In this document: one piece after another, positions 19,068 through 63,278 of the stretch | Numbering within the stretch: position 1 is the stretch's first letter | Layout of the letters: each line of letters begins with the position of its first letter | From: Candidatus Bathyarchaeota archaeon | GTDB taxonomy: Archaea > Thermoproteota > Bathyarchaeia > Bathyarchaeales > Bathycorpusculaceae | Direction of reading: 5' to 3' | Assembly (NCBI GenBank): GCA_963775925.1 | Contig: CAVZKK010000012.1 | Location: 36,390-100,389 of the forward strand | DNA: 64,000 nt | The notes under the pieces: model-generated | Database searches by the model: none | Told to the model about the DNA's origin: nothing | What the model saw: only the letters and a program-made list of their open reading frames with translations | Made by a program: the position numbers and the translations under genes

Positions 19068-20030
19068 ATGGCGCCAATAATTCGAATTGAGAACCTTACT
19101 AAGAAATTCGGAAACTTTGTGGCAGTTGACAGTCTAAACTTGGAAGTTGAGGAAGGAGAAATTCTTGGACTTCTGGGACCCAACGGGGCAGGGAAAACAA
19201 CTGCCATTCTTATGCTTGCAACAGTCATTAGGCCTACTGAAGGTACGGCTTTGGTTGGCGATTATGACATAAGAAAGAATCCGGACAAAGTGCGCGGGCT
19301 TTTGGGCATAGTGTTTCAGGAGCCTAAGATGTTGTGGGTTGCCACGCCTTGGGATATAGTGAACTGGCACGCAAAGGTTTGTGGGTTGTCAACTCAAGAG
19401 CGGAAGCGAAGGGTTAAGGAAGTATTAGATGCTTTAGATATGTGGGAGTCTCGGCACAAGAACGTTCATGCGCTTTCTGGCGGCATGCGAAAACGGGTTG
19501 AAATGGCTAAAGTTCTGATTCAAAAACCCAAGATTGCAATCGTTGACGAGCCAACTGCCCAAATTGACATAGTAGGTAAACATAAAATATGGAACATGCT
19601 CCTTGAACTCCGCGACGAAGGAAGCACCATTATCCTTGCCACAAATGAGCTTTATGAGGCTGATCAGCTTTCAGACCGTGTTGGAATATTGCACAGGGGC
19701 AAACTGATCGTGTGTGATACTCCTAAGAAGCTAAAGGACAGCATTCTGGGCGGCGACATCGTTGATGTTCAACTTGAAAAAGACGCTTCAGAGCAGATCG
19801 TTAAAGAGCTTAAAAGTCTAAAAGAAGTTGTCGATGTCATGCAAGTTAAGCCGACTAACTTGCGCCTTTACTTGAACCGGGTTGAGGAGGTTGTTCCGCA
19901 AATAATGAACTTGTTCATGAAGAACGATGTCTCAATCACTTCCATACGCATGAGTGAACCAAGCCTTGACGATGTATTCGCGCATTACACAGGTTTAACC
20001 ATTGAAGAAGCACAGAAAAATGGAGAGTGA
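19068..20030 (+). CDS. ABC-2 type transporter ATP-binding protein (module copy 1)
   Basis: Walker A GPNGAGKTT, signature LSGGMRKRVEMAKVL, Walker B IAIVDEPT, plus an approximately 90-aa C-terminal domain. Roughly 70% identical by eye to 62301-63278. Confidence 0.85.
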   Translation: MAPIIRIENLTKKFGNFVAVDSLNLEVEEGEILGLLGPNGAGKTTAILMLATVIRPTEGTALVGDYDIRKNPDKVRGLLGIVFQEPKMLWVATPWDIVNWHAKVCGLSTQERKRRVKEVLDALDMWESRHKNVHALSGGMRKRVEMAKVLIQKPKIAIVDEPTAQIDIVGKHKIWNMLLELRDEGSTIILATNELYEADQLSDRVGILHRGKLIVCDTPKKLKDSILGGDIVDVQLEKDASEQIVKELKSLKEVVDVMQVKPTNLRLYLNRVEEVVPQIMNLFMKNDVSITSIRMSEPSLDDVFAHYTGLTIEEAQKNGE

Positions 20031-20055
20031 ACCGTAAACGAACAAGCTTCTCTTA

Positions 20056-20796
20056 GTGGTTGAAAGAGACATACGCCTATTCTTCCAATACAAGTTTCTA
20101 ATTATAATGCGAGCCATATGGTTCGTTTCACAAATAGCTTTGTTCGGACTCATCGCCTCGCGCATGATGAGCGTTCCAAACTACTTTCAATACTACGTGG
20201 CTGGACTTTCTGTGATGACGCTTTATTCAGCCGCCATATTCATCGGATTTGACATTTACGAAGAGGCAGAACATGGCGTTTTTGAGTACTTGCTTAGCTT
20301 ACCTGTTTCTAGAAGACAGCTGGTGATAGGACGATCAATCGGCGGAGGTCTCAGATCATTCATATACGTTGGACCGTTAATAGCCGTGTCATTGTATGTT
20401 ATCGGCTCCATCAATCCGATTAACTTCTTAGTTGCTCTGTTTGCACTTTTCCTATTCTCTTTCGGCGTCTCTGGCATGAGCATAACAATAGCTGTAATGA
20501 TAAAATCTAGCGACCGCTTCGACATATTAATGGGCGTCCTAGACGCCTTAATCGTCCGCTTAAGCACAGCAATGTATCCTCTGGCAATCGTGCAAGCAGC
20601 CAACCCCCTTTACGGCGGACTTGCAAGTTTAAATCCTTTAACTTTTGTTTCGGATTTGTTCCGTTGGGGCGCAGCAATAATAACGCTTGACAATCCACTG
20701 TTGCCGTTGCTTGGCGTGATTGCGTTCTTTTCACTCTTCACCTTTGTAGGTATAATAATCTACGAGAGACGCATAGAAGGAGGAGGATGGCAGTAA
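20056..20796 (+). CDS. ABC-2 family permease (module copy 1)
   Basis: Six transmembrane segments with an ABC-2 layout. Paralog of 61498-62286. Confidence 0.7.
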   Translation: MVERDIRLFFQYKFLIIMRAIWFVSQIALFGLIASRMMSVPNYFQYYVAGLSVMTLYSAAIFIGFDIYEEAEHGVFEYLLSLPVSRRQLVIGRSIGGGLRSFIYVGPLIAVSLYVIGSINPINFLVALFALFLFSFGVSGMSITIAVMIKSSDRFDILMGVLDALIVRLSTAMYPLAIVQAANPLYGGLASLNPLTFVSDLFRWGAAIITLDNPLLPLLGVIAFFSLFTFVGIIIYERRIEGGGWQ

Positions 20797-21579
20797 TTGA
20801 GAGGCATAATCCGCATGGTTGAACACGATTTTAGGAACTTCTTCCGATACAAATGGTGGCTTGTAGGCTTAATCAGCATGAACCTAGCGGATTTATTCAT
20901 CATGGCTATCGTTTACAATCAAATGTTAAGCAGTGCAGTGATGCAGGAAATCAAGAGCTACTTCAATTTTTTTGCACCCGGGCTAACTGTAACAGGCTTG
21001 TTCGCCTCAGCTTTCATGATTGGGCGCGAGATAAACATGGAACGCCGAAGAGAAATACATCAATACATGCTAAGTTTGCCTATGACTAGGCTTGAGCTGG
21101 GTATCGGTCGTGTGCTTTCCGGCGGACTACGGGGCATGGTTTACATGTCGCCCTTGTTGCTGACCTGTTTCGTGTTCCTAGGATTCCCCACAGTACCGCA
21201 GTTGCTTCTAATCTTGGTAGTTCTGTTTTTCTTAGCCATCGGCATTTCCGGCTTAAGCATCGCCATTGCCGTCTCCACATCAAGCCTTGAAAAATTTATC
21301 ACGGCAAGAGGCCTAGTTTACTATACACTGTTCTTCTGCAGCAGCGTCTTCTATCCACTCTCTCTGATCCAAGATTTGGGCCGTGATGGTAAATTTCCGA
21401 TGATATTAGTGAATTTGGCGGAGGTTAACCCTTTGACTAACGGTTCAGACATGATTCGCTCTTTTCTGCTTGGTACCCCGCCTTTTTCCCCAAACATGAT
21501 TCTCAGCGTTATAGTCTTTTCAACAATTTTCACACTTGTCGCGGCGTTCGCCTATATCGAAATAATAGAACGTACATAA
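20797..21579 (+). CDS. ABC-2 family permease, second subunit (module copy 1)
   Basis: Starts immediately after the previous stop. Six transmembrane segments. Paralog of 60719-61501. Confidence 0.7.
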   Translation: MRGIIRMVEHDFRNFFRYKWWLVGLISMNLADLFIMAIVYNQMLSSAVMQEIKSYFNFFAPGLTVTGLFASAFMIGREINMERRREIHQYMLSLPMTRLELGIGRVLSGGLRGMVYMSPLLLTCFVFLGFPTVPQLLLILVVLFFLAIGISGLSIAIAVSTSSLEKFITARGLVYYTLFFCSSVFYPLSLIQDLGRDGKFPMILVNLAEVNPLTNGSDMIRSFLLGTPPFSPNMILSVIVFSTIFTLVAAFAYIEIIERT

Positions 21580-21671
21580 TGCGCAAACACTGAAATTTTC
21601 CTGTATTTTCGAGGTTAAATTTATGAATATGAATAACGTATCTTCTTTTCTTCCGCCTCCACAAGTTTGAT

Positions 21672-23045
21672 TTGAAGGTTAAATCAATGAGTGAAGTGAA
21701 AGCCATCTTTGAACCGCGAAAGGTTGTCCTAATAGGTTCAAGCGTGATTCGGGAAAAAGTCGGAATGACTTCTCCTCAGCTTTTCAAAGACGTCAGTTAC
21801 AACATGGAGAAATTTTTCCGTGGAAAAACATATATCTTGGACTTAGATGGGAAAGCAGGCTATAACAAACTGGATAAACTGCCTGAAGTTCCAGAGCTTG
21901 CAGTGATAATACTTCCGCCAAAGCAGTCTATTATTCAAGCGGAAAAATGCGCGAAGATAGGCGTCAAAGCCCTTGTCATGATTACTGGCGGATACAAAAA
22001 CCAGCAGCGCCAGCAACTGCTTAAACTTAAAGAAGAGTATGGCATTAGAATTTTGGGACCTAACACGATTATGGGCGTAATAAACACTGTCAATGGGTTA
22101 AACACAACCTTTGAAAGAAATGTTATGCCCAAAAAGGGAAACATTGCAGTCATATCGCAAAGCGGTGGAGTCGGCGCATGCATACTTGATTGGGCATGCT
22201 TTTACAACATTGGCATAAGCAAATTTGCTTTCATGGGAGACAAAATAGACGTGGACGACGTTGACTTGCTGCAATATTTTCGAAAGGACAAAGACACGAA
22301 GGTTATATGCCTATACATGGAAGGAATAAAGAACGGGAGAAAATTCATAGAAGAAGCAAGAAAAATCGTTAAGAAAAACCCAGTTCTTGCCTTAAAAGGT
22401 GGAATAACACAAGAATCAGCCCAAAGAGCCAAGTCGCACACGGCTTCGATAGCTGGTTCAGACGAAATCTTTGATGCAGCCTTTAAGAAGGCTGGAATAA
22501 TAAGAGTTGAAAACATAGAAGAATTGATGGACGCAGCTGTAGCCCTTTCGAAGCAGCCTCCAATGTTAGGAGATAGGATTGCTATCATAAGCAATGTAGG
22601 TGGACCAGCAATACTGGCTGCAGATGCTGTTGCGGAAAACAGTCTAAAACTTGCAACTTTATCGAAGAAAACAAAAATGGAAATCGAAAGTCTGTATCCA
22701 GGCGTGGACGCAACTAACCCCATAGATATGATAGCTGACGCCAGAGCCGATCGATACAAGAAAGTGCTGGATTTGGTGCTTGCAGACAAAAATGTAGACG
22801 GTGTCTTGATAATAAACATGCTTAAGTCCTGCTTCTTCGAACCAAAAGACGCCAAGGTCATTCCAAAAATAGCGTCAAAATATCCAGACAAACCAGTTGT
22901 GGATGTGCCAGCCGGTGGAGAAGACTTTGCACTCGTGTCCCAGGTATTGGGCAGTACGAGGATTCCGTTGTATAATTTGCCTGAAAAAGCCGTTAAGGCT
23001 CTAAAAGCTTTGAGAATTTATGGTAAAATTGTTGAAAAGCATTAA
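21672..23045 (+). CDS. Acyl-CoA synthetase (ADP/NDP-forming) alpha-subunit-like protein, CoA-binding (module copy 1)
   Basis: CoA-binding Rossmann start (VVLIGSS), CoA-ligase domain, and a conserved phosphohistidine loop (KSHTASIAGSD). 457 aa, like stand-alone ACD alpha subunits. No ATP-grasp beta domain is encoded nearby. Confidence 0.6.
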   Translation: MKVKSMSEVKAIFEPRKVVLIGSSVIREKVGMTSPQLFKDVSYNMEKFFRGKTYILDLDGKAGYNKLDKLPEVPELAVIILPPKQSIIQAEKCAKIGVKALVMITGGYKNQQRQQLLKLKEEYGIRILGPNTIMGVINTVNGLNTTFERNVMPKKGNIAVISQSGGVGACILDWACFYNIGISKFAFMGDKIDVDDVDLLQYFRKDKDTKVICLYMEGIKNGRKFIEEARKIVKKNPVLALKGGITQESAQRAKSHTASIAGSDEIFDAAFKKAGIIRVENIEELMDAAVALSKQPPMLGDRIAIISNVGGPAILAADAVAENSLKLATLSKKTKMEIESLYPGVDATNPIDMIADARADRYKKVLDLVLADKNVDGVLIINMLKSCFFEPKDAKVIPKIASKYPDKPVVDVPAGGEDFALVSQVLGSTRIPLYNLPEKAVKALKALRIYGKIVEKH

Positions 23046-23104
23046 CTATATTTCGTAGATGCATAGATTCTATTTGTGGTTGTCGCCTTCCTTTAGGTGA
23101 AACA

Positions 23105-24807
23105 TTGGTTCAACATTCAAAACGCTTAAACGAGGAACTATTTGGGCAAATCCTTGACTTTTGTAGACATGTCGCTGGCTCTTGCCAAATTACGGCAGCA
23201 TGCATATGCAGTCATTACGCTTTAGGATTGTCCAATACGAAAACGGCAGTGGAAGTTTTGCTTGTAATTCGTGGTTTTCAGCCGAGGCTTATGAATTATT
23301 TGAAGGTTTTCGATGAAAGAAACATAATTGTTCTTGCTGTTGATGAAGGGGTTTTTGAAATGGATGTTGATAGAGGATTTTTGGGCGAAGCCTTGGCTGG
23401 CGGATTAATTTTTCCATACACACCTTTACTGAACGAAGTTTACTTGCATGTTCAAGAGGTTAAATTGAAAAAACGCCTAATCCTCGAACTTTTAGAAAAC
23501 CTTGTTTTAGATTTCCCAGAACTTTCCTACGAGATTCACATAAAACCTGAATATTTCATGTACGAAACCATGCTCGTTAGAGCCCGACTTTTTCCGCCAA
23601 TGATATACAATTTGCTGAGTTTTATGCGAGAAAAAAGCAAAAAAGAAAACATAGAAAAAGTTCTTCGCGGATATTCACAGGCGCTGAAAGATTTAGAAAA
23701 AGAAAAATCAATTAATTTCACAAATGGTTACGTGACAATCTCAGGACATTTTTTGGACAAAACCAGAAGCCGAAAAACCCGCTTCATAAACCTCTTTAAA
23801 CCCGCACAGAAGACCTTATTTACATCTTTACTTAGTATCTTTCCGCAAATTGTGGGCTTTCTTTCCCAAAACAAAGAAATACTCCCTAAATTACGTAGAG
23901 TGACTGAGGAAAACTCAATTGTCCATCAAATTGAAGACCCTCAAAAGTACTTGTATATTCCTACCGCCAGCGGGCTTGTTCCATTAGCGAACAAGATGGA
24001 TATTAAAGCCTTTGCGAGGGATGTTCTTTCTGCAGATAAGGACGCGGAAATTGGGATTGAGGAAATTGGCGGCGTTTTAAACGATGCCTACTTAGTTAAG
24101 ATCCCAGTAAATGGTCAAGAGCGAAAAATTGTTGTTAAAAGGTTTAGGGACTGGTCGAGTTTCAAATGGTTTCCGCTTACGTTATGGACTGTTGGAACCA
24201 GAACCTTTGCTGTTTTGGCGCGTTCAAGACTTGAAAGGGAATGCGCCATAAACCAACTGTTATATTCAAATGGTTTTGCTGTTCCAAAACTTCTATATGT
24301 AAATCATGCTGAACGTTTAATTTTCATGGAATATGTGGAAGGCGAAAACCTTGAAAAAGCAATAAGAAGAATCATGGTTTCGAAAAACGCTGACGAAATG
24401 AAGAAGGACTTAAGCATCATAAATAACGTAGGTGAAAAATTCGCTAAGGTGCATGCTCTCGGCATCGCTTTGGGCGACACAAAGCCAGAAAACATTGTGA
24501 TTGGTAAAAACGGTGAAGTTTGCTTGCTGGATTTTGAGCAAGCTTCGCGGAATGGTGACAAGGTTTGGGATATTGCAGAGTTTTTGTATTATGCTGGACA
24601 TTACATTTCACCGTTTGTTGGTGTCGGTCAGCCGAGCTTATTGCAAAGGCTTTTATTGAGGGTTATCTGAAGGCTGGAGGAAACGTTGAAATTGTTAAAG
24701 AGGCTGGAAATCCGAAGTACACAAAAGTTTTCAGCGTATTCACATTTCCACACATAATTTTTGTTATTTCCAACATCTGCAGGAAAGCTGATAAATTGAA
24801 GGAATAG
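23105..24807 (+). CDS. Two-domain protein: N-terminal nucleotidyltransferase-like domain (degenerate in this copy) plus C-terminal atypical protein-kinase-like domain; frameshift near 24620 (module copy 1)
   Basis: Kinase-fold landmarks: VVKRF lysine, catalytic GDTKPENIV, metal-binding DFEQA. The C-terminal 60 aa continue in the 24565-24807 ORF, by analogy with the contiguous copy-2 sequence. The N-terminal region aligns with copy 2's GS...DEKTDVNVLLVID nucleotidyltransferase motif but has lost the aspartates. Confidence 0.5.
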
Positions 24808-24809
24808 AC

Positions 24810-26145
24810 ATGGTTAAGCATAAAACAACTCTGACCTTCTACGGTGGAGTAAACGAAATCGGCGGAAACAAAATCCTACTTCAAGACAGAGACGTCAAAG
24901 TTTTCTTCGATTTCGGCATGTCCTTCGCTTTGAAGAAGCAGTATTATTCTCCGCCTTTTCTTTCGCCAAAAAGCGAAAAAAGTTTACAAGAGCTTGGGAT
25001 TCTGCCAAAAATTGAAGGCATCTACATTGATGAAAAATCTCCAGAAATCGACGCTGTTTTTATTTCGCATGCACACATGGACCATTCTGCCTACATATCT
25101 TTCATAAACCGTGAAATCCCCGTATACTGCGGCGAAACAACAAAAATTATTTTGCAAGCATCAAGTGAAATGCGTAGAGCCGATTTAGAGTTCAACGTTG
25201 AAAATATAACTTTTAAGCCTTTCAGAACAGGCGATAGCATCACTATAGATCATCTGAAAATTGAGCCAATTCACGTTGACCATTCTATTCCAGGCGCCTA
25301 CGGCTTCATTATCCACACCACTAATGGTGCTGTTGTCTATACTGGAGATTTTAGGGCTCACGGGGCGAAACCTGAAATGACATCTGATTTTGTTGAGAAA
25401 GCCAAAGAAGCCGAGCCTGTGGCTGTTGTTACTGAAGCTACGAACATGACTGGCGCATCTGTTTCTTCGGAAGGTGAAGTTGAAAACAAATTAAATAGTA
25501 TTGTTGGGCAAGCAGATGGCATTGTGCTGGCTGATTTTGCTTACACGGATGTTGACAGACTTAATTCATTCTATCGAATAGCCAAGAAGAATGGGCGATG
25601 CCTTGCTGTTTCACTTAAGCAAGCCTATTTGATGAACGCACTGCGGAAGGATAAGGGCTTGAGCATTCCAGAGCTTAAACGATGAGAATATCTTGATTTT
25701 TCGAAAGTCGAAGAAGAAGTATGACAATTGGGAAAGCCAAATCATGGAAGAATACCCGAATAAGATTGTTAATGTATTCGAAGTTTCGAAGCAACAGTGC
25801 AAAGCCATCCTAGCCATGTCCTTTTATGATTTGGAGGAACTTGTGGAAATCCAGCCAAAGGCAGGTAGCTGCCACATTTTGTCTGCTTCTGAACCCTTCA
25901 ACGAGGAAATGGAAATAGACTTTGAAAGGCTTGTTAACTGGCTTAAGCATTACGGCTTACCACAATATCATGCCCATGTATCGGGGCACATAATGCCGCT
26001 CCAACTGAAAGCTATTATTAAAGAGATTAGCGCAAAAAAGATTTTTCCCATTCACACAGAAAATGCAGACTTATTCACCAAGTTCATGCGAGACCTAAAA
26101 AGCCAAACAGTGCAAACAGAAAAGTGCAAGGAGTACAAAATTTAG
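24810..26145 (+). CDS. RNase J-like beta-CASP metallo-beta-lactamase, frameshifted near 25685
   Basis: HAHMDHS (HxHxDH). Beta-CASP-like DHSIPGAYGF...YTGDFRAHG. C-terminal H-containing motif (HVSGH). The two ORFs total about 440 aa, as in archaeal RNase J. Confidence 0.55.
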
Positions 26146-26152
26146 CAATACT

Positions 26153-26746
26153 TTATTCTCTCCACATTTCAGCCACTTTTTTTCCAATCAGGCCATAGAA
26201 GAAGCAACTAACAACGAATTTTGCTGCTATGACAATTGAATTTCCCACGAATATCCAAACGGGAACCATAAGCACTAGATCAACCACAAGAAGAATGATG
26301 AACAGGATAAGTCCATGAAAAAAGATGTTCGTGGCTGAATCTTTCATAGAAAATCCCCAAACAAATCTGGACACAATGCTATTTGCCACTCCAACTATAA
26401 TGAAGAGAAGAAGTATGCCGATAATTAGTCCTATAAGACTGCCGATTAAAATTAAAAATACTCCAGTTAATGCCCAAACAATTTCAAGCGCAAAGAACAG
26501 CCCGCTGAAGGCAATGCCGTGAACGAAAAATTTCACCGTCTTTTTCCATAATGGGGTCGTGAGAGAAGCCATCTTAGATTTTTTAACGTCAAAGTTGCAT
26601 TTTTGGCATGTCCAAAAACCTTTTCCTTCACCGTTTTCATAATATTCCATGGGTTGTCCACATTTCGGACAGTTTTGGTGCTCAAGAACGTCGGACTTAC
26701 TCCAACTTTCTTGTAAATCCCTTATTGTACTCTCCCTATCGCTCAT
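26153..26746 (-). CDS. Membrane protein with an N-terminal zinc ribbon
   Basis: CPKCGQ...CQKCNF followed by four predicted transmembrane helices. Confidence 0.45.
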   Translation of the reverse strand: MSDRESTIRDLQESWSKSDVLEHQNCPKCGQPMEYYENGEGKGFWTCQKCNFDVKKSKMASLTTPLWKKTVKFFVHGIAFSGLFFALEIVWALTGVFLILIGSLIGLIIGILLLFIIVGVANSIVSRFVWGFSMKDSATNIFFHGLILFIILLVVDLVLMVPVWIFVGNSIVIAAKFVVSCFFYGLIGKKVAEMWRE

Positions 26747-27013
26747 TGCAATTCTTCAATTTTATCTTATCGTGTAACAGCTTAAATAATTTTGTTTTCG
26801 ACATTTTATAACCTCGCAGAATTAAACCAAAATTATGCAAGAGACACACACTGAGTTACGTATAATTACTGGAATACATGTTAAAATTGCTTCATAGCAA
26901 CAATCTGGAGCGCTTCTCTTTTCATGAGTAATTTGTGCTTGCTACATAGCCAACAGAGTCAAAAGCATGCGTTAATTATATCTGATTGAAATAACTTACT
27001 CTCTAGTCACTAT

Positions 27014-27921
27014 GATCTCTATAATTGGCGCGGGAAAGTTGGAAGTGCTGCAGCATTCAACATTTTAAGGTATAGAATCAGCGATGTTGTCCTAATAGAC
27101 ATTGCCGAAAATTTGGCCAAAGGCGAAGCACTTGACATGATGCAGACTGCGCCTGCAATAGAGTTTGACGGAAAAATCAAAGGAACCAGCGATTTCAGCG
27201 AAATGGAAGGCTCAGAAATCGTAATCGTAACTGCGGGCGAAGCGAGAAAACCTGGAATGACAAGAATTGACCTTGCGAACAAAAATGCAAAGATAGTTAA
27301 ATCCATAGTGAAGGAAGTTGTGAGGTACGCTCCTGAATGCAAGCTTATGCTTGTGACAAATCCAGTTGACATCATTACATACATAGCCTATAAGGAATCA
27401 GGCTTCGAGAGAAACCGTGTTTTTGGAATGGGCAACATCCGAGATGCTCTACGTTTCAGATCTCACATTGCACTGGAACTGAATGTTTCGAGAGAAGATG
27501 TCCGTGCCTTAGTTATAGGCGAACACGGTGATTCCATGGTTCCTCTGTTGAATATGCTTCTGTGTCGGGAATACCCATAACATGTTTGCTTAGAAAAAAA
27601 CAAATTGAGAAAATAGTTAACTTAACAATAACTTCCGGTTCTGACGTCATTAAACTGAAGGGATCAACAACTTATGCGCCAGCAGCAGTCATCGGAATTA
27701 TGGCAGATGCCATTCTCAGAGGCAGAAACAGAGTAATGGGTGTTTCGACTTATCTACAGGGTGAATACGGATTTTCAGACGTTTCAATTGGTGTGCCAGT
27801 AATCCTCGGAAGGAATGGTGTTGAAAAGATTTTGGAGCTCGAATTGATGCCTGAAACCAAAAAACGCCTTGAAAAGTCTGTCTTAACTATAAAAGAGGCT
27901 ATAAAGAAACTAAGTGAATAG
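27014..27921 (+). CDS. mdh: Malate/L-lactate dehydrogenase (LDH/MDH family), with at least two frameshifts
   Basis: The Rossmann GAGxVGS motif is recovered if one A is added to the gggaaagttgg run near 27040. Substrate/catalytic segments include DIVIVTAGEARKPGMTRIDL and IGEHGDSMVPL. The C-terminal part lies in the 27562-27921 ORF. Confidence 0.75.
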
Positions 27922-28044
27922 CGTGTGCACTGTTTTCGTTGAGTATTAACGTTTGATATTTAGGGTGAATTATTAGGTTTTGTCGTGTGTGGGGATTCAT
28001 AACGTATAAGTTAAAGTATCAACTCTTGATATTTACGATATAAA

Positions 28045-28284
28045 ATGAAAGCCGACACAAAGCTTGACCGCCGAATGCGAGTTCTCTTCCACACCTTAGG
28101 CTTAAGCTGCCTAGGCGGCGCCATATTTCTCCAAATCCTAGTTTTCACGGACATACTCCAACATGGATACTTCATAGCTGCGGAAAACAACCCAGCAATT
28201 TTAATATTTGAAATAGTTTTAACGTTTTTCGCCCTTATTTACTTCATATACATATATCAACGCTTCATCCGCTCAATAAAATAG
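28045..28284 (+). CDS. Small two-helix transmembrane protein (paralog of 40211-40450)
   Basis: 79 aa, about 45% identical to the 40211 ORF, with the same hydrophobic layout (LGLSCLGGAIFLQILVF...). Confidence 0.45.
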   Translation: MKADTKLDRRMRVLFHTLGLSCLGGAIFLQILVFTDILQHGYFIAAENNPAILIFEIVLTFFALIYFIYIYQRFIRSIK

Positions 28285-28412
28285 CCGATGTTAAGCATCA
28301 AAATTTAAAAAACCTTTTTGAAAACCGCTAAGCAGCAAAGGAAGTAATAGAAAGTATTAAATAAGGTTCGATTAAACTCAGTCAATGGTTTTCAAAATTT
28401 GAAGGTGGAATA

Positions 28413-29139
28413 ATGAAAAACATAAGAAAACTAGCCTTAATCTTAATCATCTTTACCCTCACATTCGCGCCGCTCTATGGAGCCAAAGGGCAACAACTGA
28501 CGGAAAACATGCAAACATTCTTCGACCATGAAATTCTAGGAATTCAATAACCGTCAACGCTACAGCAGAAACCCATCCAAACGAAAACATAACTATCAAA
28601 CTATTCATAATTCCACTGGGGAAGAAGTTTGCATAAAATATTTCAATTTAAGCGTTTTCGGCTTCATAAACGGTACATACAAAACCATGATTTACAACAT
28701 AACTGTTAACAACTTTCCATTTAACGATACTTTTACAGTTCCTGAACAAGTTTGGGGTGTATCCTATGGGGAAATCACGTTAACATACGATGTAAAATAC
28801 GTCATGGACCAAGGCCCTACAATAACAATACCATATGAAAACTTTATTGGTTTTCCAATGACCCGTGTTAAAAACGTTTACTTGGAAACAGTCGAAGAGC
28901 AGCTTAGAAACTTGAACAGCATTTTTGAGCAGCTTAATCAGACTTTTTGGCAGATGTTTCAAATGAACCTTACGGAAGAAAGCTTGGCTAACTTGAACGA
29001 GACTTATTGGGGTCTTAAAGGAAGCTCAAATGAACTTGGTAACACAAGAATGGCAGTGGGCATCTTAGCGGTAACAACAGTTTTCTTCGTAGCCACAACG
29101 CTTTACCTTGTTATGCGAAAACCCAGAGAAAGTTGGTAG
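28413..29139 (+). CDS. Secreted, probably N-glycosylated, C-terminally membrane-anchored protein, frameshifted in the 28530-28690 region
   Basis: A signal peptide (MKNIRKLALILIIFTLTFAPLYGA) opens a 46-aa ORF. The frame continues without a Met into the 28687 ORF, which is rich in NxT sequons and ends with a transmembrane anchor (AVGILAVTTVFFVATTLYLVMRKPRESW). Confidence 0.35.
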
Positions 29140-53378: not shown

Positions 53379-53559
53379 GGGAAAAAGTTAAACGCACTTA
53401 TTTCAAGCGTCACCGCAAAAGAGTCGTCAAATTTCATGGAGTCACTTTTTTTACCTAAAATTTTTCTGCGATACTCTGGGATGCTAATGAATGCGCCTTT
53501 ATCTCGCTGTTTAGTCAGCCATTCAAGTCCTTTATGTAAGGAGATTTTTGTCGTTCAAG

Positions 53560-53818: not shown

Positions 53819-55550
53819 TTATTTTGTTTTTCCTGTTTTCTTGCAGAGGTTAGAGATAGCGAAGATTATGTGGGGCTGGGTGAAGATGCTGAAAACTTTT
53901 GTGTATTTTGGTGACCCAGCGTTCTTTATGTTTTCTTTTTTTCCTCCGGTTTCTAGGTATCCTTCAATAAACTCTTTAGCGACGCGCTCTAGAGCGTTTG
54001 CTGTAGAAAGCGGAGGAACATAATGCCCCGAATAATAGAGGAATTCGGCTATGTCCCAGTTTTGGTCACCGTCTCTGGTTGCCTGCTCCAAATCTACAAA
54101 GCATAGTTTTCCATTTGTTGTTACTATGACGTTTTCGGGCTTGCAGTCTCCTAAAAGAGACGCCTAATTTATGAATTTCAGCGATTTTCCCACCAACCTC
54201 CCGTATCAAACCTACTCTTGCTAATGTTTCCCTCTTGCCAGAAAGCATTTCCTTGACAATTTCGCCAAAGTTTTCTCCTTCAATAAACTCTTTGAAAATT
54301 AGCCGTTCTTGAGGGCTGACATACAACGTTTTTGGAACACAAATTCCCTTACTATGTAAAAACTGGTTAATTGCATATTCTCTTTCCAGTCTTGTTCTTC
54401 CAAGAACTGCGAAGGATTTAGTTCCCAGCGACCACAAGGTTAGAGGGAACCATTTGATGCTTGCCCAATCCCTGAACCTTTTAACTACAATCTTTTGTGC
54501 CTCATGACTTCTTTCAAGTGTGAGAAGGTATACGTCGTTTAAGACGCCTCCAATCGGTTTCAATTCCATATTAAGAATTTCTCCGCTGGGAACAGTTTTT
54601 CTTACAAAGTCTTCGATGGTAGTCTTATCTGAGAACGAAACTGGTCCAAGCGGTGTCGGCACAAAAACATGTTTTCTAGGGTCTTCAAGTTGAGAAACTA
54701 AATTCTCAACGTCTGCATCCTTGTGGGTCTGTAGCAAGATTTCTTGGTCATTCATGTAGGGTCTCATCATTTTCGGCAGAACACTCAAAATATTTAGCAA
54801 AGCTGCCCTTTGAACGGCTTTAATGAAAGTTGGAATTCGGATTCTTCGTTTTCTAACGGTGTCTATGAAGTTCCGTGTAATTTTCACATAACCGTTAGAT
54901 GAAGATTATTTTGTTTTCTTCTGCCAATTCGGTAAGTGCCGCTTGATATCCTTTCATCATGCAATCGACATTTTTCTTTTCACGTCCTCTCTCATCATGT
55001 TTAGATACGTGTAGGCTACTGGCGGAAACAGTCGAGCTCTTTGCATCATAGCCTCATACATGAAGTATTCTTTTTCGATGAGTAGTTCTTGAGAGAGTTC
55101 TGGAAACGTAAAGACAATATTTTCTAAAAGTTCCCAAATTATTCTTTTTTTCGCCTCCACTTCTTTCTTCTGCCAGTAACTTTCATTTAGCAGAGGCTGG
55201 TATGGGATGATGAGTTTATTTACGACAAATTCTCCAAGCCACCCTTGCCTAACATCTCTTTCAAACGAACCTTTATCAACCGCTAAAATGAATGCTCTAA
55301 CTTCGTTTAGAGACTTCAAATAACCCTTCAATATAGAACGATAATTATCAATCACCAATAGGACGTTTACATCGGTTTTCTCGTCAGCGTATCCACATAC
55401 ATGCGGACCATAGAAGCATGCAGCTACTATTTCGCGGGAGCCAGCAATACGCTTACAGACGCTTAATATGTTCTCGTTTAGATTTTCATTCTTAAACTGC
55501 ATTTTCATAGTATTTTCCATATTCTTAGCCGCATGGAATTTCTGTGACAA
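53819..55550 (-). CDS. Nucleotidyltransferase / atypical-kinase fusion protein (module copy 2), split over three frames
   Basis: Intact nucleotidyltransferase motif GS...GYADEKTDVNVLLVID. Kinase-like blocks VVKRF and, by hand translation across the frameshift, LGDCKPENVIV...DLEQA. C-terminal 90 aa in 53819-54091. Confidence 0.5.
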
Positions 55551-55779
55551 CTATTTCCTTTTTCTTTTCTTCTCTTTTAGGTTTAATGCGTCTAACGATT
55601 TTTTCCGTTTTTCCCTCCTCTCCGGGACAGTTGTGTTCTTCTGGAAGACAATGGTCTTGGCAATACCATTCTTCACATCTGGTGCATTGATAGGGCAGTG
55701 GAGTTGGTTGTAGACAGTAATTGCAGTGAGATGAAGCATAGCCTACGGTTGCTACATCCAATCTTAGATGTTGGAGCAA
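55525..55779 (-). CDS. AN1-type zinc-finger protein
   Basis: CNYC-x9-C-x2-C-x4-C-x2-H-x5-H-x-C fits the AN1 zinc-finger spacing exactly, followed by a Lys/Glu-rich tail. Confidence 0.5.
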   Translation of the reverse strand: MLQHLRLDVATVGYASSHCNYCLQPTPLPYQCTRCEEWYCQDHCLPEEHNCPGEEGKTEKIVRRIKPKREEKKKEIVVTEIPCG

Positions 55780-56000
55780 TATTTGACAAGATTTTCTTCA
55801 CTATTTCATGGCATTTTTCTCGAGGCATATAATCTGGCAGAACTATTGAGATTTCATTTCCTCGCTGAACTACCGTAAATCGTTGTCCACCAATTTTTCC
55901 ATCTCCAATTCCTTTGGTTCGTTCACGTAACCCCAATAGACGAATAATTTCTCCCCAAGCAATTTGAGAAAGCACTGTTCTAAAAATTAAGTTAGACATT

Positions 56001-57352
56001 TTATCTGTCACATCTAGCCATCTTATAGTATGCTCGCAACGCCTTTAACGCCTTTGCTGCCTTGTCAGGCAAATTATAGACAGGTATCTCAGTGTCCTGC
56101 AAAACCTTATAGACCATATTGAAGTCTTCTCCTCCAGCTGGAACATCAACCACAGGCTTGCCCAAACTCTTTTTTGCGGTTTCAGCAATCGCTTTAGCAT
56201 CTTCTGGTTCAAAGAAGCATGATTTCAGCATGTTTATGACCATAACTCCGTCCACGTTTGGGTCTGCTAAGACTAAGGCTAAAACGGTTGAGTATCTTTC
56301 ACTTCTTGCGTCTGCAATCAAGTCTATAGGGTTGATAACTTCTACTCCAGGATAATGCCTTTCAACTTCTTTTCTTGTTTTTTCTGAAAGCGTTGCTAAT
56401 TTTAAGCCGTTTCTTGCAATTGCGTCTGCAGCGAGGATGGCTGGTCCACCTACATTGCTTACAATCGCTATGTTGTCTCCACGCAGGGGCGGCTGTTTCA
56501 CTAGGGCAATGGCGGAGTTGAGCAGTTCTTCGGCATCTTCAACTCTGATGATTCCAGCTTTTTTCAGTGCTGCGTCAAACACGATGTCTGAGCCTGCTAT
56601 TGATGCCGTATGCGATAAGTGCTCTTCTGAGCCGCTTCCTTGGTTACTCCGCCTTTCAATGCCAGAATTGGTTTTTTCTTAACAACTTCTTGGGCTGTTT
56701 CTATGAATTCTCGTCCTCTTTCGATTCCTTCCATGTAGAGGCATATTGCTTTTGTTTCTGGGTCTTCGTTAAAGTATTGTAGTAAGTCTACGTCGTCGAT
56801 GTCGATTTTGTCTCCCATAAAAACGAATTTGCTTACGCCTATGCTGTAGCAATATGCCCAGTCTAGTAGGCATGCGCCGACTCCTCCGCTTTGAGAGATA
56901 ACTGAAATGTTACCTTTCGTGGGCATTAGGTCTTTTTCGAAGGTTGTGTTTAACCCGTTGGATGTGTTTATGACTCCCATGATCGTGTTTGGTCCAAGTA
57001 TGCGTATGCCATACTCTTTCCTAATGCTCGCTAGTTGTTGTCTTTGCTCATTCTTGAATCCGCCAGTTACCATGACTAATGCTTTGACTCCGATTTTAGC
57101 GCATTTTTCTGCCTCTTGCACTGCCAATTTTGGTGGAAGCATGATTACGCCTAAATCTGGCACTTTCAACAAAGTCTTGCGTTCTTCTTTTTCAATGTCG
57201 ATAAGGATAGTTTGTCCCTGAAAGAATTTCTTCATGTTGTAAACAACGTTTTCAAAAAGTTCAGGAGATGTCATTCCGACTTTTTCTCGAATTTTGCCAG
57301 ACCCAATAAGTAAGACGATTTTTGGTTCGAAGAGTGAATTCACTTCATTCAT
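56001..57352 (-). CDS. Acyl-CoA synthetase (ADP-forming) alpha-subunit-like protein (module copy 2), frameshifted near 56590
   Basis: Collinear paralog of 21672-23045, split into two ORFs (56597-57352 and 56001-56582). The phosphohistidine-loop region is conserved. Confidence 0.55.
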
Positions 57353-57683
57353 GACTTTGCCTCTTTCCTAGAAATCCTAGTTTGAAAGTGAGGGTTCAAA
57401 TATTCTCTTGAATAGGCTTAAACATTTCCTTTTTTTGTTTGCATGTTTGAGATATCGCGCGCAACTTTTGCCCTTCTCTCTTCTGATGAAAACTGGAAAA
57501 ATTTTTTGTTTTTTCATCAATTGCTGAGGGAATCTTTTGTTTTCTGATTTTGAAATAGGCGTTGGTTTGGGTTCTGTTGGGTTTGATAACTATGATAGGA
57601 GTTGATAAATGTTTTCAAGCATTTTGCCCTTTTCAAAAAAGGGTTAAGCTTAATATTTTCTGCTAGCTTCTCTTCTCAGCGTA

Positions 57684-58472
57684 GTGGTTGCTATGGGCTC
57701 AAGTTCTGGGTCTGCGGTAAAATTGAGTAATGTCGTCAAACGTTATAGCGACATTACTGCACTAGATAATGTTAATTTGGATGTAAGATATGGCGAAATT
57801 TTTGGGCTTCTCGGACCAAATGGCTCAGGCAAGTCAACTACGTTGAAGATTATTTTAGGTTTGGTTAAGGCTGATTCTGGCTTTACCAACGTTTTAGGCA
57901 TAGATGCAGAAGAGAATCCTGTGGCTGTGAAGCAGCAGGTAGGGTATGTTCCAGAGTCGCCACATCTTTATGAGTTTTTGACAGGAATTGAGTATCTTGA
58001 CTTTATCGGCGACATCTATGGAATGCAACCAACAGAAAAGAAGGAACGAATAGCCGAATACTTGCAGGCGCTTGATTTGGAAGGAAGAGAAGGCGACATG
58101 ATAGCTGGCTATTCCGCTGGAATGAAACAGAAAATAGCCATAATATCTGCTCTTATACATAAGCCGAAACTGCTACTTCTAGACGAGCCGTTGACTGGTT
58201 TGGACCCGAGGTCAGCCAGAATCATAAAAGACCTACTTCATGAATTAGCCTCAAAAGGGGTAACAGTCATTATGTCGACTCATATCTTAGAAATTGCTCA
58301 AGCCATGTGTCACCGCATAGCCATTATGCTCAATGGGAGAATCCTTGCATTAGGCAACATGGAAGAGCTGAGGCAAAAAGCAAAACTGCCCGGCTCAGAT
58401 TTGGAAGACATCTTCCTAAAACTTACAGGAACAGAAGACATTAAAGATGTAGTTGAGGCACTCCTCAAATGA
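57684..58472 (+). CDS. ABC transporter ATP-binding protein
   Basis: Walker A GPNGSGKST, signature YSAGMKQKIAIISAL, Walker B LLLDEPLTGLD. Confidence 0.85.
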   Translation: MVAMGSSSGSAVKLSNVVKRYSDITALDNVNLDVRYGEIFGLLGPNGSGKSTTLKIILGLVKADSGFTNVLGIDAEENPVAVKQQVGYVPESPHLYEFLTGIEYLDFIGDIYGMQPTEKKERIAEYLQALDLEGREGDMIAGYSAGMKQKIAIISALIHKPKLLLLDEPLTGLDPRSARIIKDLLHELASKGVTVIMSTHILEIAQAMCHRIAIMLNGRILALGNMEELRQKAKLPGSDLEDIFLKLTGTEDIKDVVEALLK

Positions 58473-60146
58473 AGTGGAAAAATGTTGCTAGGCTCATAAG
58501 CGTTGACATCAAGTCAGGAAGACTGATGAGGAGTAGAGAGTTTAGAAAATATCGGGAAAACAAGTTTCTTACATATCTGCTTTATATTGGGGCCGTTTTA
58601 GTAGGAATTGCAGTTGCAGTAATTGTTTTGAGCGTATATGCGGCTATAGCAGATGCGTCGATGAGACAAGTAATTCATGATGGAATCATGGCACTGTTCC
58701 TTTCTTTTCCGTCTTTGATTTTCATTTACAGCCTTGTTTTAACTTTGATGGGGCAACTTCAACGAATGGGGATAAAAGTCTCTATTCAACCGCCTTATTG
58801 GTTGCCTATTACGTGGAGTGAGCATACTCTTGCATCGATTATCGCTATCCTTCTCGGCATTCCGCTTGCTTCAATACTTTTAATTGGTTCAATAGTTGCG
58901 GTGCTTTCCATCTTTCTGGGGCAAGTGCAGTTGGCGATTTTCACTATCTTAGCGTCTTTTGCTAGTGCGTTTATGGCTAGCACTACTACAGAGATTTTCA
59001 GAGTTTTGCAACTCAGACTAGTTGGAGCAGTGTACAAATCCTCTGGCAAAGTCTGCAGTCTGGGTTAGATTCATAGGGTCAATGCTTTTCATCGTAATTT
59101 TCTATTTAATCTGGTTTTCAATTGCTTCTGGAATGAATTCAATTGCCTTCATAGGGGCAATTAGCAGTTGGCAAAGGCTGGTTTGGTTTATTCCCTATGT
59201 TTGGCTAGGGATGGCTTTATACTCCCTCTCTTATGGATTACTTTTTGATACACTCATTTTCTCAATCGCATCTATATTCTTCATTCTACTCCTATTTTAC
59301 ATAGCGGTTAAACTGAACACAAGATATGGGCTATATGAGCCTCCTGCAATTACTATCTCTCGAGGAGTTTATTCACCAAAAACTGGCTTCTTAGCAAAGT
59401 TGGGTTTCTCTTCCCTAGAAGCAGCAATCATCAGGAAAGATTTCAAGGCTTTCACGAGACGCAAAGAATTAATGTATATTTTCATAATGCCCATTGTATT
59501 AGTAATTGTGCCGTTAATGCAGTCTTTCAATGCAGCGACAACTCCTTCTTCAGCGTTTTCTCAACTGTTCCTTTCTGCATGGGTCCTCTTGATTCCTGGT
59601 CCCGCTATGGCTGCGATCATGGGAGATATGATTCTTGGCGAAGAAGGTGGAGCAGTGTGGCATTTCTTTTCATCGCCACTCTCTGCGGGTAATCTTCTCA
59701 AATGCAAGTATGCGGTTGTGGCGTCATTCTCATTCCTAGTAGCAGCTATTTGTAGCGTGATTGGCATAGTGATATTTCAGCCATCAGTGAAAGTCATCGC
59801 GGTTTCCCTAATCGAGTCCATCTTCTTGATTATTGCCTTAGCTATGATTTCTATCGAATCTGGAATAAGAGGAGCAGACTTCGTTGAGATTCCAAGACCG
59901 AGAATGATAAAAACTTGGACAGCAATTACCAGTTTCATTTTATGCTCAATAGTTGGTTTAGTGATACTGGCACCTCTCTTGCCACATGTTGCTACAAAAA
60001 TTGGTTTGCCCATATCTTTAGTGCCCCCTTTTGACCTCTACATTTCGCTTATAGCAAGCGGGCTCATAGCCTCTGTAATAACCTACATATTTTATAGGTT
60101 AGCATTGAAAAGAGCAAAGGATTTTCTAACCAACACTGAAACCTAA
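58469..60146 (+). CDS. Polytopic membrane protein(s), the putative permease for the preceding ATPase; possibly one gene split by a frameshift near 59030
   Basis: Two overlapping ORFs (58469-59068 and 59022-60146), both strongly hydrophobic. Start overlaps the ATPase stop. Confidence 0.45.
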
Positions 60147-60308: not shown

Positions 60309-60653
60309 TTATGGGGGTGGAGGCGGTGGTGGGGGTGTCGCCCCACTGGGTTTCCATCTGAGAGCCAAAATACCTCCGATGAGAGTAATGATATTCAGTC
60401 CGGCAATTATTGACAATACCACAATAATGATGCCCCAAGTGTGTGCAGAAGATGGCTTATTGTACATCATGACTGCTCCAAGTATCATTATTAATCCGAG
60501 TATTATGAAGTAAGCGCCAATCATTACATTCGTGTTAGGATCCATGCCAGAGATTAGCACCGCCAGTCTTGCAGCAAGTGCAACGCCAAGAAGAATCTCA
60601 AGGATTCCTCCGATCAAGGTTACAATGAATGCAGTGGTAGGTTTTTCTGCCAA
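60309..60653 (-). CDS. Small membrane protein with a C-terminal polyproline tail
   Basis: 114 aa, three transmembrane helices, ends ...GATPPPPPPPP (poly-G run in the DNA on the plus strand). Confidence 0.4.
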   Translation of the reverse strand: MAEKPTTAFIVTLIGGILEILLGVALAARLAVLISGMDPNTNVMIGAYFIILGLIMILGAVMMYNKPSSAHTWGIIIVVLSIIAGLNIITLIGGILALRWKPSGATPPPPPPPP

Positions 60654-61501: not shown

Positions 61502-62286
61502 TGCCAGCTACCTCCTTCAAGCCGCCTCTCGTAGAAAACCACGCCTACAAACGTGAAGGAAAGGAAGAATATGAAAAGTCCAAGAACACCGACAAACGGA
61601 CTGAATTGGATAGAGCCTCCAACTCCAGTAGCCCAGCGGAACATGTCAGAAGCGTAAGTGAGCGGATTAAAGTTAGCGATTGCAGCGTATGAGGGCATGG
61701 CTTGCTGCAAATAAAGCATCGGGTACATCGTCGTGCTTAATCGCACAATCAACGCGTCTAATACGCCGATGAATATGTCGTACTTGTCGCCTGACTTCAT
61801 GGTCACTGCTATTGTGATGCTCATACCAGAAACCCCGAAAGCAAACAAGAAAAGAGAAGCAATCGCAACGAGTAAATAAAGTGGATTTGAAACACCCAAG
61901 ATAAGCAAAACAATCACTAGCAAGGGTCCAACATAGATGAAACTGCGTAGGCCTCCTCCTATTGACCGCCCTAACACAAGTTCTCTTCGGCTTATGGGAA
62001 GCGTGAGCAAATACTCAAATACGCCGTGTTCAGCTTCCTCAAAAATGTCGTATCCAATAAACATAGATGTTGAATACAATGTTATTATTGTTACGCCAGC
62101 CACATAGTAGTTAAAGTAGCTTATGTCCAACACTTCAGCGGCTGATTGAACCATTTGGTTAACAACAAGTCCAAAAAGGGCTACTTGTGCCACGAACCAT
62201 ACTCCACGCATAATAAAAAGAAACTTGTATTGCATGAACATGCGCAAGTCACGTTCAATCACAAGCCAGAGTTTTTTTAAGCCCAC
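61498..62286 (-). CDS. ABC-2 family permease (module copy 2, paralog of 20056-20796)
   Basis: Six transmembrane helices. Shared blocks EEAEHGVFEYLL, GRSIGGGLRSFIYVGPL, YERR.EGG.WQ. Confidence 0.7.
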   Translation of the reverse strand: MGLKKLWLVIERDLRMFMQYKFLFIMRGVWFVAQVALFGLVVNQMVQSAAEVLDISYFNYYVAGVTIITLYSTSMFIGYDIFEEAEHGVFEYLLTLPISRRELVLGRSIGGGLRSFIYVGPLLVIVLLILGVSNPLYLLVAIASLFLFAFGVSGMSITIAVTMKSGDKYDIFIGVLDALIVRLSTTMYPMLYLQQAMPSYAAIANFNPLTYASDMFRWATGVGGSIQFSPFVGVLGLFIFFLSFTFVGVVFYERRLEGGSWQ

Positions 62287-62300
62287 GGCAATAGCCTCAT

Positions 62301-63278
62301 TTACTGCACGTACTGTGCCTCTTCAAGAGTCAAGCCTGTAAAGTGAGAAAACACGATGTCTAAGGAGGGCTCAGCCATGTGAATAGAGGATATCCTTAGA
62401 TTATGGTCATAGAACAGTTTTGTTATTTTGGGTGTCACAGCCTCCATTTGGTTTAAGTACAACATCAGTTGGGTGGAACCTACTTTTTTGACTGAGACAA
62501 CTTCCTTGAAGGCTTGCAGTTCATCAAAAACCTTGTCTGGCACTTCCTTTTCCAAATGAACTTCCATGATGTCGCCGCCTGGTACGCTGTCCTTCAGTTT
62601 CTTAGGCGTATCGCACACGAGCAGTTTGCCCTTATGCATTATGGCAACTCTATCCGAAAGGACGTCAGCTTCATTGAGTTCATTTGTCGCCAAAATTATT
62701 GTAGAACCTTCCTTTCTCAAGTCGCGAAGCATATTCCAGATTCTGTGTTTTCCGACCACATCGATTTGGGCGGTAGGTTCGTCAACGATGGCTATCTTTG
62801 GTCTCTGAATCAAAACTTTTGCAATCTCCACACGTTTTTTCATTCCACCAGACAGAGCATGAACACTCTTGTGGCGGTCATCCCACATACTCACTTCTTC
62901 TAACGCCCATTTGACTCTCCTCTTACGCTCTTGAGTGGAAAGTCCACAGACCTTTGCATGCCAGTTGAGAACATTCCATGCAGTGCTCACCCAGAGAAGC
63001 TTGGGTTCTTGGAAGCAGACACCAATCATTTCACGGGCTTTGTCGGGTTGTTTCCTGATGTCGAATCCTACTACTGTGGCTGTTCCTTCAGTTGGTCGTA
63101 TTACCGTTGTGAGCATTAGTATAGTTGTTGTTTTGCCTGCACCATTGGGTCCAAGCAAGCCAAAGATTTCGCCTTCTTCTATTTCAAGGTTCAAATTGTC
63201 TACGGCTGTAAGTTTTCCAAATTTCTTCGTCAAGTTTGTAGTTTGGATGATTGGCACATGCTCGCCTTCATAACTCAA
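62301..63278 (-). CDS. ABC-2 type transporter ATP-binding protein (module copy 2, paralog of 19068-20030)
   Basis: Walker A GPNGAGKTT, signature LSGGMKKRVEIAKVL, Walker B IAIVDEPTAQ, and the same C-terminal domain. Confidence 0.85.
   Translation of the reverse strand: MSYEGEHVPIIQTTNLTKKFGKLTAVDNLNLEIEEGEIFGLLGPNGAGKTTTILMLTTVIRPTEGTATVVGFDIRKQPDKAREMIGVCFQEPKLLWVSTAWNVLNWHAKVCGLSTQERKRRVKWALEEVSMWDDRHKSVHALSGGMKKRVEIAKVLIQRPKIAIVDEPTAQIDVVGKHRIWNMLRDLRKEGSTIILATNELNEADVLSDRVAIMHKGKLLVCDTPKKLKDSVPGGDIMEVHLEKEVPDKVFDELQAFKEVVSVKKVGSTQLMLYLNQMEAVTPKITKLFYDHNLRISSIHMAEPSLDIVFSHFTGLTLEEAQYVQ

Follow-up and report, generated by a model that had tools for sequence, protein, structure and literature searches.

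We analysed a window of 64,000 nt from a Candidatus Bathyarchaeota archaeon (contig CAVZKK010000012.1 of assembly GCA_963775925.1) that carries two clusters of five genes, copy A at 19068-24807 on the plus strand and copy B at 63278-53819 on the minus strand. As judged from the lists of open reading frames (ORFs) and by BLASTP, the two clusters agree in their proteins and in the order of these: an ABC-2 ATPase, two ABC-2 permeases, a protein resembling the alpha subunit of ADP-forming acetyl-CoA synthetase (ACD), and a fusion of a nucleotidyltransferase (NTase) domain with a kinase domain. An earlier note on this DNA had explained the pair by an ancient inverted duplication. The comparisons below suggest instead that the pair represents xenologous, lineage-specific versions of one conserved Bathyarchaeia locus, united by lateral transfer, a reading to which we give slightly less than an even chance. 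The two copies are nested in separate clades and are not each other's closest relatives; neither was therefore derived from the other within this genome. The genes of the two clusters are as follows; related loci are cited by L number and individual proteins by P number.

19068-20030, plus strand: copy A ABC-2 (DrrA-like) ATPase; Pfam ABC_tran and DrrA1-3_C; TIGR01188 (drrA) 293 bits, cut-off 312
20056-20796 and 20797-21579, plus strand: the two copy A ABC-2 permeases; Pfam ABC2_membrane; about 32% identical to each other
21672-23045, plus strand: copy A protein like the alpha subunit of ACD (NDP-forming acyl-CoA synthetase); Pfam CoA_binding_2, Succ_CoA_lig and Ligase_CoA_2; TIGR02717 398.6 bits, cut-off 567
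23105-24807, plus strand: copy A kinase, a single gene of 568 aa with a Tam41-like NTase/winged-helix N-terminal domain (N-domain) and a Bud32-like kinase domain
62301-63278, minus strand: copy B ABC-2 (DrrA-like) ATPase; 89% identical to L003/L086
61498-62286 and 60719-61501, minus strand: the two copy B ABC-2 permeases
56001-57352, minus strand: copy B ACD-alpha-like protein, interrupted within the His-loop motif by a 1-nt indel (near 56600)
53819-55550, minus strand: copy B NTase/kinase fusion, with 1-nt indels near 54957, 54906 and 54150

All five pairs match at these positions, as the earlier note had claimed, and the protein matches are full length and extend beyond the ABC motifs. BLASTP gave an identity of 70.1% for the ATPase pair (E 1e-171), 59.4% and 63.7% for the permease-1 and permease-2 pairs, 68.7% for the ACD-alpha-like pair once its frameshift was repaired, and 48.0% over 560 aa for the NTase/kinase pair, also with frameshifts repaired (44% in the N-domain and 52% in the kinase domain). 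The values that had been estimated by eye, about 70% for the ATPases and about 50% for the kinase-like proteins, were accurate. Self-alignment of the window returned inverted DNA matches between the copies of 65.6% over 2458 nt, 70.3% over 1343 nt and 64.8% over 673 nt. These checks indicate diverged homology over the full length, neither limited to ABC motifs nor consisting of identical DNA, and the window does contain two collinear homologous copies in inverted orientation, as a segmental inverted duplication would.

The module comprises five genes and not the six that had been counted, because the extra ORF is a frameshifted kinase end: the ORFs at 24565-24807 (80 aa) and 53819-54091 (90 aa) are the out-of-frame C-termini of the two kinase genes. 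A sixth family, named p427, is also doubled in the window, in direct orientation (29154-30440 and 52461-53744, both on the minus strand; 76% identical in nucleotides and 81% in amino acids). Two further genes of the conserved locus, for a beta-CASP metallo-beta-lactamase (MBL; 24810-26145) and a deaminase (17709-19016), are present in the window beside copy A only.

Affinities of the two copies

We compared the window with about 165 related loci, namely 80 A-type loci from species genomes (the best 80 matches, all of them A-type), 80 B-type loci from metagenomes, and additional look-ups, and annotated them with tblastn. Where the kinase homologues were named, they belonged to Bathyarchaeia. 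The locus has the same order in both types: MFS (minus), polyprenyl synthase (minus), PadR (minus), PadR (plus), deaminase, ABC-2 ATPase, permease, permease, ACD-alpha-like protein, kinase fusion, beta-CASP MBL, Fae and TrmI. Versions A and B occupy the same TrmI-adjacent slot with the same flanks in different genomes, and because both fill this single slot, they behave as positional orthologues.

The kinases form two clades. Clade A members share at least 64% identity with copy A and 43-50% with copy B; clade B members share at least 57% with copy B and 44-48% with copy A. We built neighbor-joining trees, which carry no support values, of the kinase and of TrmI, a gene linked to the locus. 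In the kinase tree, copy A was nested with L001 (93%) and L006 (79%), and copy B with L005 (97%), L086 (85%) and also L087. The two copies did not branch together against the orthologues of other genomes, and the per-gene identities agree. The TrmI tree split cleanly by locus type and placed the window beside L086 in the B group, at 94% identity; L006, which has the canonical A flanks, carries an A-group TrmI. The gene tree therefore conflicts with the host marker, since the TrmI of the window lies in the B lineage and copy A in the A clade. This nesting and the parallel split of TrmI leave an internal inverted duplication unsupported. From the proposal of an old duplication, the deep divergence, the homology and the collinearity stand; the duplication within this genome does not. 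The available taxon labels agree with the two lineages, one A-type protein being labelled Bathycorpusculaceae and one B-type protein Bathyarchaeaceae.

The features on which the assignment of the two halves depends are listed here.

15553-32775, no strand: A-lineage-like segment, defined by collinearity with L001, A-lineage neighbour genes and tetranucleotide profile
29154-30440, minus strand: p427 (427 aa), with two compensating frameshifts; a hallmark of A-type loci
47891-51684, minus strand: TrmI (47891-48676) with a tandem pair of Fae/Hps genes; the canonical right-hand flank, here joined to copy B
52461-53744, minus strand: p427', the second p427 copy, with three frameshifts; it follows the copy B kinase, at the position of the MBL gene in other B-type loci

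From 17708 to 32775 the window is collinear with contig L001 at 89-94% nucleotide identity, with sharp ends. The outer flanks of L001 (PadR, polyprenyl synthase, MFS and M3) had no match in the window. To the left of this block, the GNAT gene (16989-17612) shares 89% identity with its positional counterpart in the A-lineage locus L006, and the aminotransferase gene at 15553-16849 also matches A-lineage loci; the A-like segment may reach position 1 of the window. At the other end, the window is collinear with the B-lineage loci L003/L086 from 42.2 to 63.3 kb, about 21 kb of synteny with L086. Its Fae-TrmI set is single, and genes for PadR, polyprenyl synthase and MFS are absent. The oligonucleotide composition divides the window at a similar place. 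All 16 tetranucleotide correlations between the halves (0.887-0.924) were below all 12 correlations within the halves (0.927-0.962), with a boundary near 28-34 kb separating about 1-32 kb from 32-64 kb; GC content shows no difference between the two parts. In addition, p427' nests inside the diversity of A-lineage p427 and was also found in the independent assemblies L005 and L092, which shows earlier gene flow from A to B at this locus.

Taken as a history, these observations would fit the following course. In most genomes one locus would fill the slot, in either the A or the B version. The backbone of the window (TrmI, Fae and the synteny with L086) would belong to the B lineage, with version B in the canonical slot, and version A would most likely have been imported by lateral transfer from an A-lineage Bathyarchaeon, since it lies in a stretch of 17 kb or more that matches an A-lineage contig at about 90% identity and differs in its oligonucleotide signature. 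Version B here is without the genes for the deaminase, the MBL and PadR, which may have been lost through redundancy. True co-residence of both versions is consistent with the A-derived p427' beside the B kinase, and with a copy B that is without the deaminase and MBL genes that the A segment supplies.

Interrupted genes and alternative origins

Single-nucleotide indels occur across the whole window, at about one frameshift per 2 kb, and roughly half of the genes are broken. Within copy B they affect the genes for the ACD-alpha-like protein (one), the kinase (three), an AN1 zinc-finger protein (one) and a protein with 12 transmembrane segments (12-TM; one). They are also found in copy A (kinase and MBL) and in Ldh, p427, FeoB, ACAD, NFACT, aminotransferase and M3; examples lie at 24624, 25671, 27038, 27547, 30118, 30249, 54150, 54906, 54957, 56600 and 59050. 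The copy A kinase, for instance, is broken by a 1-nt deletion near 24624 and appears as two ORFs, 23105-24670 and 24565-24807. For the copy B kinase, the frameshifted reading is identical to a protein fragment in NCBI/ENA (P0362), encoded on a contig of 109,076 bp. Given that copy A and housekeeping genes bear the same lesions, that many of the lesions are contractions of homopolymers, and that an intact orthologue exists at 97% identity (P0121, for the copy B kinase), the indels look like uncorrected error of unpolished long reads and not like decay of copy B. Stop-codon recoding and programmed frameshifting were also considered and rejected: the stops sit between compensating +/-1 indels, and the orthologues are uninterrupted.

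It is thus very unlikely that copy B is a decaying pseudogene cluster, a dead duplicate marked by its six frameshifts. Its ACD, AN1, kinase (three times) and 12-TM genes are all interrupted, as this explanation would predict, but the same type of 1-nt indel breaks the kinase and MBL genes of copy A, and Ldh, FeoB, ACAD, NFACT, the aminotransferase and M3 are housekeeping genes interrupted likewise, which speaks against pseudogenisation limited to copy B. Moreover, many of the indels are homopolymer contractions, and amino-acid conservation runs unchanged through each frameshift.

The same error-prone assembly, deposited in this state, lends some weight to a second explanation, in which an A-lineage fragment (about 1-32.8 kb) was joined head-to-head with a B-lineage fragment (about 32.8-64 kb) that co-occurred with it, so that the copies would be the orthologous loci of two organisms. 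We regard such an assembly chimera as unlikely, though well short of negligible. The left half of the window is A-like and the right half B-like in gene similarity, the compositional boundary is single, and the closest relatives, L001 for A and L086 for B, each show one version within 10 kb of the kinase. Neither the look-ups nor a search with the flotillin gene found an independent contig across the boundary near 32.8 kb. Nevertheless, assembly artefacts do not typically join two different genomes head to head, and nothing seen at the junction would account for a mis-join: the homologous parts are only 65-70% identical, and the boundary showed no shared repeat beyond an intergenic element of about 140 nt. 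Version B of this sublineage is also without the genes, deaminase and MBL, that the A segment supplies, and the A-derived p427' of L005 and L092 demonstrates that A-lineage DNA has entered this B sublineage. Clearly less probable is an ancient duplication, in which an ancestor of the Bathyarchaeales doubled the whole locus, most lineages lost one or the other copy reciprocally, and the lineage of the window kept both. The deep divergence of A and B (48% in the kinase, 43% in the MBL), which exceeds the species split suggested by TrmI, and the gene order kept in both copies are compatible with it, and lateral transfer and expansion of gene families by duplication have both been reported in Bathyarchaeia (PMC11697101), which favours it. 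However, the same slot and flanks in both versions would require a duplication of more than 20 kb that included the flanks, followed by exact reciprocal losses, and the window holds a single Fae-TrmI set and none of the PadR, polyprenyl synthase or MFS genes. Furthermore, copy A stands beside L001 and L006, the TrmI of L006 is of the A lineage and that of the window is of the B lineage. These positions contradict vertical descent of both copies, so that a transfer is needed in any case.

Several points also weigh against lateral transfer as the origin of the pair. The missing contig across the boundary is one of them, and no integrase, tRNA, att sites or flanking repeats were found at the ends of the segment; an Rfam scan of the window returned tRNA-His only. 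The statement that a genome has one locus derives from the shared TrmI-adjacent slot and not from counts per genome. TrmI, which we take to be a single-copy gene, could have moved together with the locus to which it is linked. Finally, TrmI of B-type loci is 68-77% identical to that of the window and TrmI of A-type loci 65-75%, against about 60% and 46% for the kinases; this small gap in TrmI beside a large gap in the kinase suggests that the A/B split may be older or faster than the species split. A second, diverged copy of a cluster is an ordinary genome feature. The case also calls for caution, since clusters in metagenome-assembled genomes that look paralogous can be xenologs or assembly joins instead of old duplications.

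The conserved locus and its neighbouring genes

The gene order that the earlier note saw kept in both copies extends, by the neighbourhood search, to more than 160 Bathyarchaeia loci. The MBL gene lies directly 3' of the kinase gene in 57 of 73 A-type and 45 of 59 B-type loci, the ACD gene directly 5' of it in 51 of 70 and 23 of 58, and both permease genes upstream in 49 of 54 and 18 of 34, respectively. The ACD gene is absent from 14 of the 54 A-type loci that keep the transporter, and the transporter is absent from some others. Gene order is strongly conserved, yet the cluster is modular, with the kinase and MBL genes as its tightest pair. That kept order argues for functional coupling of the five proteins, as had been proposed, is therefore borne out in part: the order is widely conserved, but the ACD gene can be missing where the pump is present and the transporter can be missing elsewhere. 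A search of the literature on this cluster and on the NTase/kinase fusion found nothing specific.

Some genes belong to one version. The p427 gene was found on the opposite strand downstream of the kinase gene in 42 of 82 A-type loci; across A-lineage loci it is conserved at 76-90%, above the conservation of the kinase, and it had no Pfam, NCBIfam or PDB match. A second ABC ATPase gene with the 12-TM gene was present in 13-16 of 84 B-type loci, and the AN1 gene in 22 of 84; neither occurred in any of 82 A-type loci. Since both are shared by B-type loci down to 57-63% kinase identity, they are old features of the B lineage and not, as the earlier note held, insertions that copy B acquired.

Two variations of the locus were also seen. 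About 18 A-type loci (including L006, L015, L017, L027, L034, L038, L039, L044, L051, L054, L059, L063, L070, L076, L083 and L085) carry a third subtype of the ABC-2 transporter, at about 70/60/56% identity and roughly equidistant from the A and B transporters of the window; the pump genes thus have a replacement history of their own within the locus. In a rearranged variant, the block deaminase-PadR-PadR-polyprenyl synthase-MFS is inverted and follows the MBL gene instead of preceding the pump. Both lineages have this variant (B-type L129, L140, L151 and L165; A-type L034).

The other features of the window that belong to the two versions are the following.

17709-19016, plus strand: amidohydrolase of the MTA/SAH/5'-deoxyadenosine deaminase family; Pfam Amidohydro_1, E 6.5e-79; NCBIfam PRK06038 539 bits, PRK07228 410 bits
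24810-26145, plus strand: beta-CASP MBL (RNase J-like), 444 aa in relatives; TIGR00649 104 bits, cut-off 400
55525-56011, minus strand: AN1 zinc-finger protein, 157 aa in relatives; Pfam zf-AN1
57684-60146, plus strand: second ABC ATPase (57684-58472) and 12-TM protein (58469-60146), divergent from the copy B ACD gene
60309-60653, minus strand: small membrane protein ending in a poly-proline tail, encoded in the direction of copy B; Pfam DUF308
32844-32986 and 57473-57609, with a weaker copy at 63442-63526: intergenic AT-rich element, about 140 nt long, whose copies are about 71% identical

On the A side, the deaminase gene is the first gene of the A-type locus and is 91% identical to its counterpart in L001; 35 A-type and 16 B-type loci have it upstream of the ABC gene, and the window has none beside copy B. 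The MBL gene starts 3 nt past the stop of the copy A kinase gene and is split by a 1-nt insertion near 25671. Its TIGR00649 alignment spans residues 11-417, with matches to Pfam Lactamase_B_2 and, weakly, RMMBL, and it stays below the score for the RNase J/beta-CASP family. Three side observations concern the A-like half and its edge. The ORF at 26153-26746 on the minus strand (197 aa), with a weak DpnI-like match, stands where L001 has a MEDS-domain gene in an otherwise collinear region. A 79-aa protein encoded at 28045-28281 (97% identical to L001) has a second copy, 59% identical, at 40220-40441 in the B-like half. The gene for a flotillin (Band_7) makes up, with the next gene downstream (about 107 aa; 30951-32708, minus strand), a two-gene cassette that recurs at 91-92% identity in wholly different neighbourhoods (L167-L170).

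On the B side, homologues of the DUF308 protein are located between the ACD and kinase genes in L131, L134 and L135. The 12-TM gene, with one frameshift in the window, encodes 556 aa in L003, and the AN1 gene, also with one frameshift, reads as 55673-56011 plus 55525-55779. The tandem genes for Fae/Hps (DHDPS and Fae) paralogues, at 48735-50252 and 50231-51684 on the minus strand, are 65% identical in nucleotides over about 0.8 kb. This tandem is common to L003 and L005; more distant B-type loci and A-type loci mostly have one copy. Copies of the 140-nt intergenic element precede the flotillin gene and the copy B ABC gene, and another stands in the gap between the copy B ACD gene and the second ABC gene. 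The copy at 32844-32986 adjoins the boundary between the A-like and B-like halves, and L086, L088 and L092 retain the one at the B locus. The element may be a promoter or operator that these genes have in common.

The fusion protein, its partners and known systems

Relatives encode the kinase fusion as one protein of about 568 aa. The residues K and E and the motifs GDxKPEN and DxEQA are invariant in 242 sequences; the beta-3 lysine, the alpha-C glutamate, the catalytic aspartate and asparagine and the metal-binding aspartate are thus all in place, and the domain is predicted to be an active kinase. The N-domain has the alpha/beta fold of Pol-beta-like NTases, so that the label "nucleotidyltransferase/kinase fusion" given by the earlier note is right at the level of the fold. 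Its acid triad is incomplete in both clades, in different ways: the DxD motif reads D-V-N/H in B and x-V-E in A, and the glycine and the third aspartate of the NTase motif are conserved. Tam41 is active with one acidic residue (PMC11646218), so that an incomplete triad is compatible with an active as well as an inactive NTase domain. Three N-domains gave no Pfam match at E values up to 10. The N-domain family is narrow: after clustering at 50%, it has 227 representatives among 1.84 billion proteins, and nearly all of these measure 530-600 aa and share one architecture of NTase and kinase. The family is currently mislabelled as Bud32 or UbiB.

In the module, an ABC ATPase and ABC2_membrane permeases occur together, as in an ABC-2 exporter. 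The gaps between genes of the module are 0-100 nt; such close packing, with the MBL gene starting 3 nt past the kinase stop, suggests an organisation in one or two operons. We predict, with low confidence, a DrrAB-like heterodimeric ABC-2 exporter for a hydrophobic substrate, coupled to three cytoplasmic proteins. These would be a CoA-binding phosphohistidine protein (an ACD alpha subunit without beta), a catalytically competent kinase of the Ser/Thr type whose Tam41-like NTase/winged-helix domain acts as sensor or enzyme, and a beta-CASP hydrolase whose translation is coupled to that of the kinase. It is a doubtful possibility that the module is controlled by PadR and that the kinase fusion modifies or regulates a partner or a small molecule linked to export. 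Two candidate readings of its purpose are at best as probable as this. The Tam41 fold, the neighbouring polyprenyl synthase and the ABC-2 pump could point to activation and export of a lipid or envelope precursor, and the APH-like, ANT-like, MBL, DrrAB and PadR themes could point to an island for modification and efflux of xenobiotics. A more far-reaching proposal, which we consider improbable, is that the locus encodes an undescribed pathway throughout the class Bathyarchaeia. A Tam41-like cytidylyltransferase/kinase and the ACD alpha subunit without beta would activate a lipid or envelope precursor, the heterodimeric ABC-2 pump would export it, and two ancient, exchangeable allelic versions would be swapped by lateral transfer.

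The Bathyarchaeia share a strongly conserved, uncharacterised locus built on a narrow protein family. It offers a defined biochemical target in an abundant and almost uncultivated class of archaea, and its two deep versions, which track lineages, make it a candidate synteny marker for the taxonomy of Bathyarchaeia.

The arrangement in the window resembles known xenologous (pseudoparalogous) clusters in that diverged copies lie in one contig, each nested in a different lineage, and in that the incoming segment has a distinct oligonucleotide signature. It differs from them in that the segment bears no mobile-element hallmarks and that co-residence is deduced from one contig.

The pump resembles DrrAB exporters: the ATPase has the DrrA C-terminal domain, the permeases are of the ABC2_membrane family, and NCBIfam gives drrA and drrB as the best matches. 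Related loci have regulators of the PadR family upstream, as do several drug-efflux pumps. Unlike the DrrB homodimer, the module has two distinct permeases, and its scores are under the subfamily cut-offs (293 against 312 and 76 against 223). The ACD-alpha-like protein shares with the alpha subunit of ADP-forming acetyl-CoA synthetase all three alpha domains and the SHTAS His-loop (KSHTASIAGS in copy A), and TIGR02717 aligns with it end to end. However, it scores 399 against an equivalog cut-off of 567, and no beta (ATP-grasp) gene was seen in the locus, where the called neighbours belong to other families.

The N-domain and Tam41 (Mmp37), a CDP-diacylglycerol synthase, are alike in being without the full three-acid triad (PMC11646218). 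In contrast to Tam41, the N-domain is fused to a kinase, and no membrane-binding C-terminal region was identified in it; at about 10% identity it shows no relationship to the Tam41/Mmp37 family at the sequence level. The kinase domain, which JGI labels Bud32, is small with a truncated C-lobe, like Bud32/PRPK of the KEOPS complex and the RIO kinases. It scores 58.5 bits against an NCBIfam cut-off of 125 for Bud32, and the fusion exceeds Bud32 by an N-terminal extension of about 290 aa. No Kae1 was seen in the loci whose gene calls were read, where the neighbours are instead the ACD-alpha-like protein and the beta-CASP MBL. The catalytic loop also sets the fusion apart from both Bud32 and RIO, since GDxKPEN, with its lysine, is the loop of Ser/Thr eukaryotic-type protein kinases.

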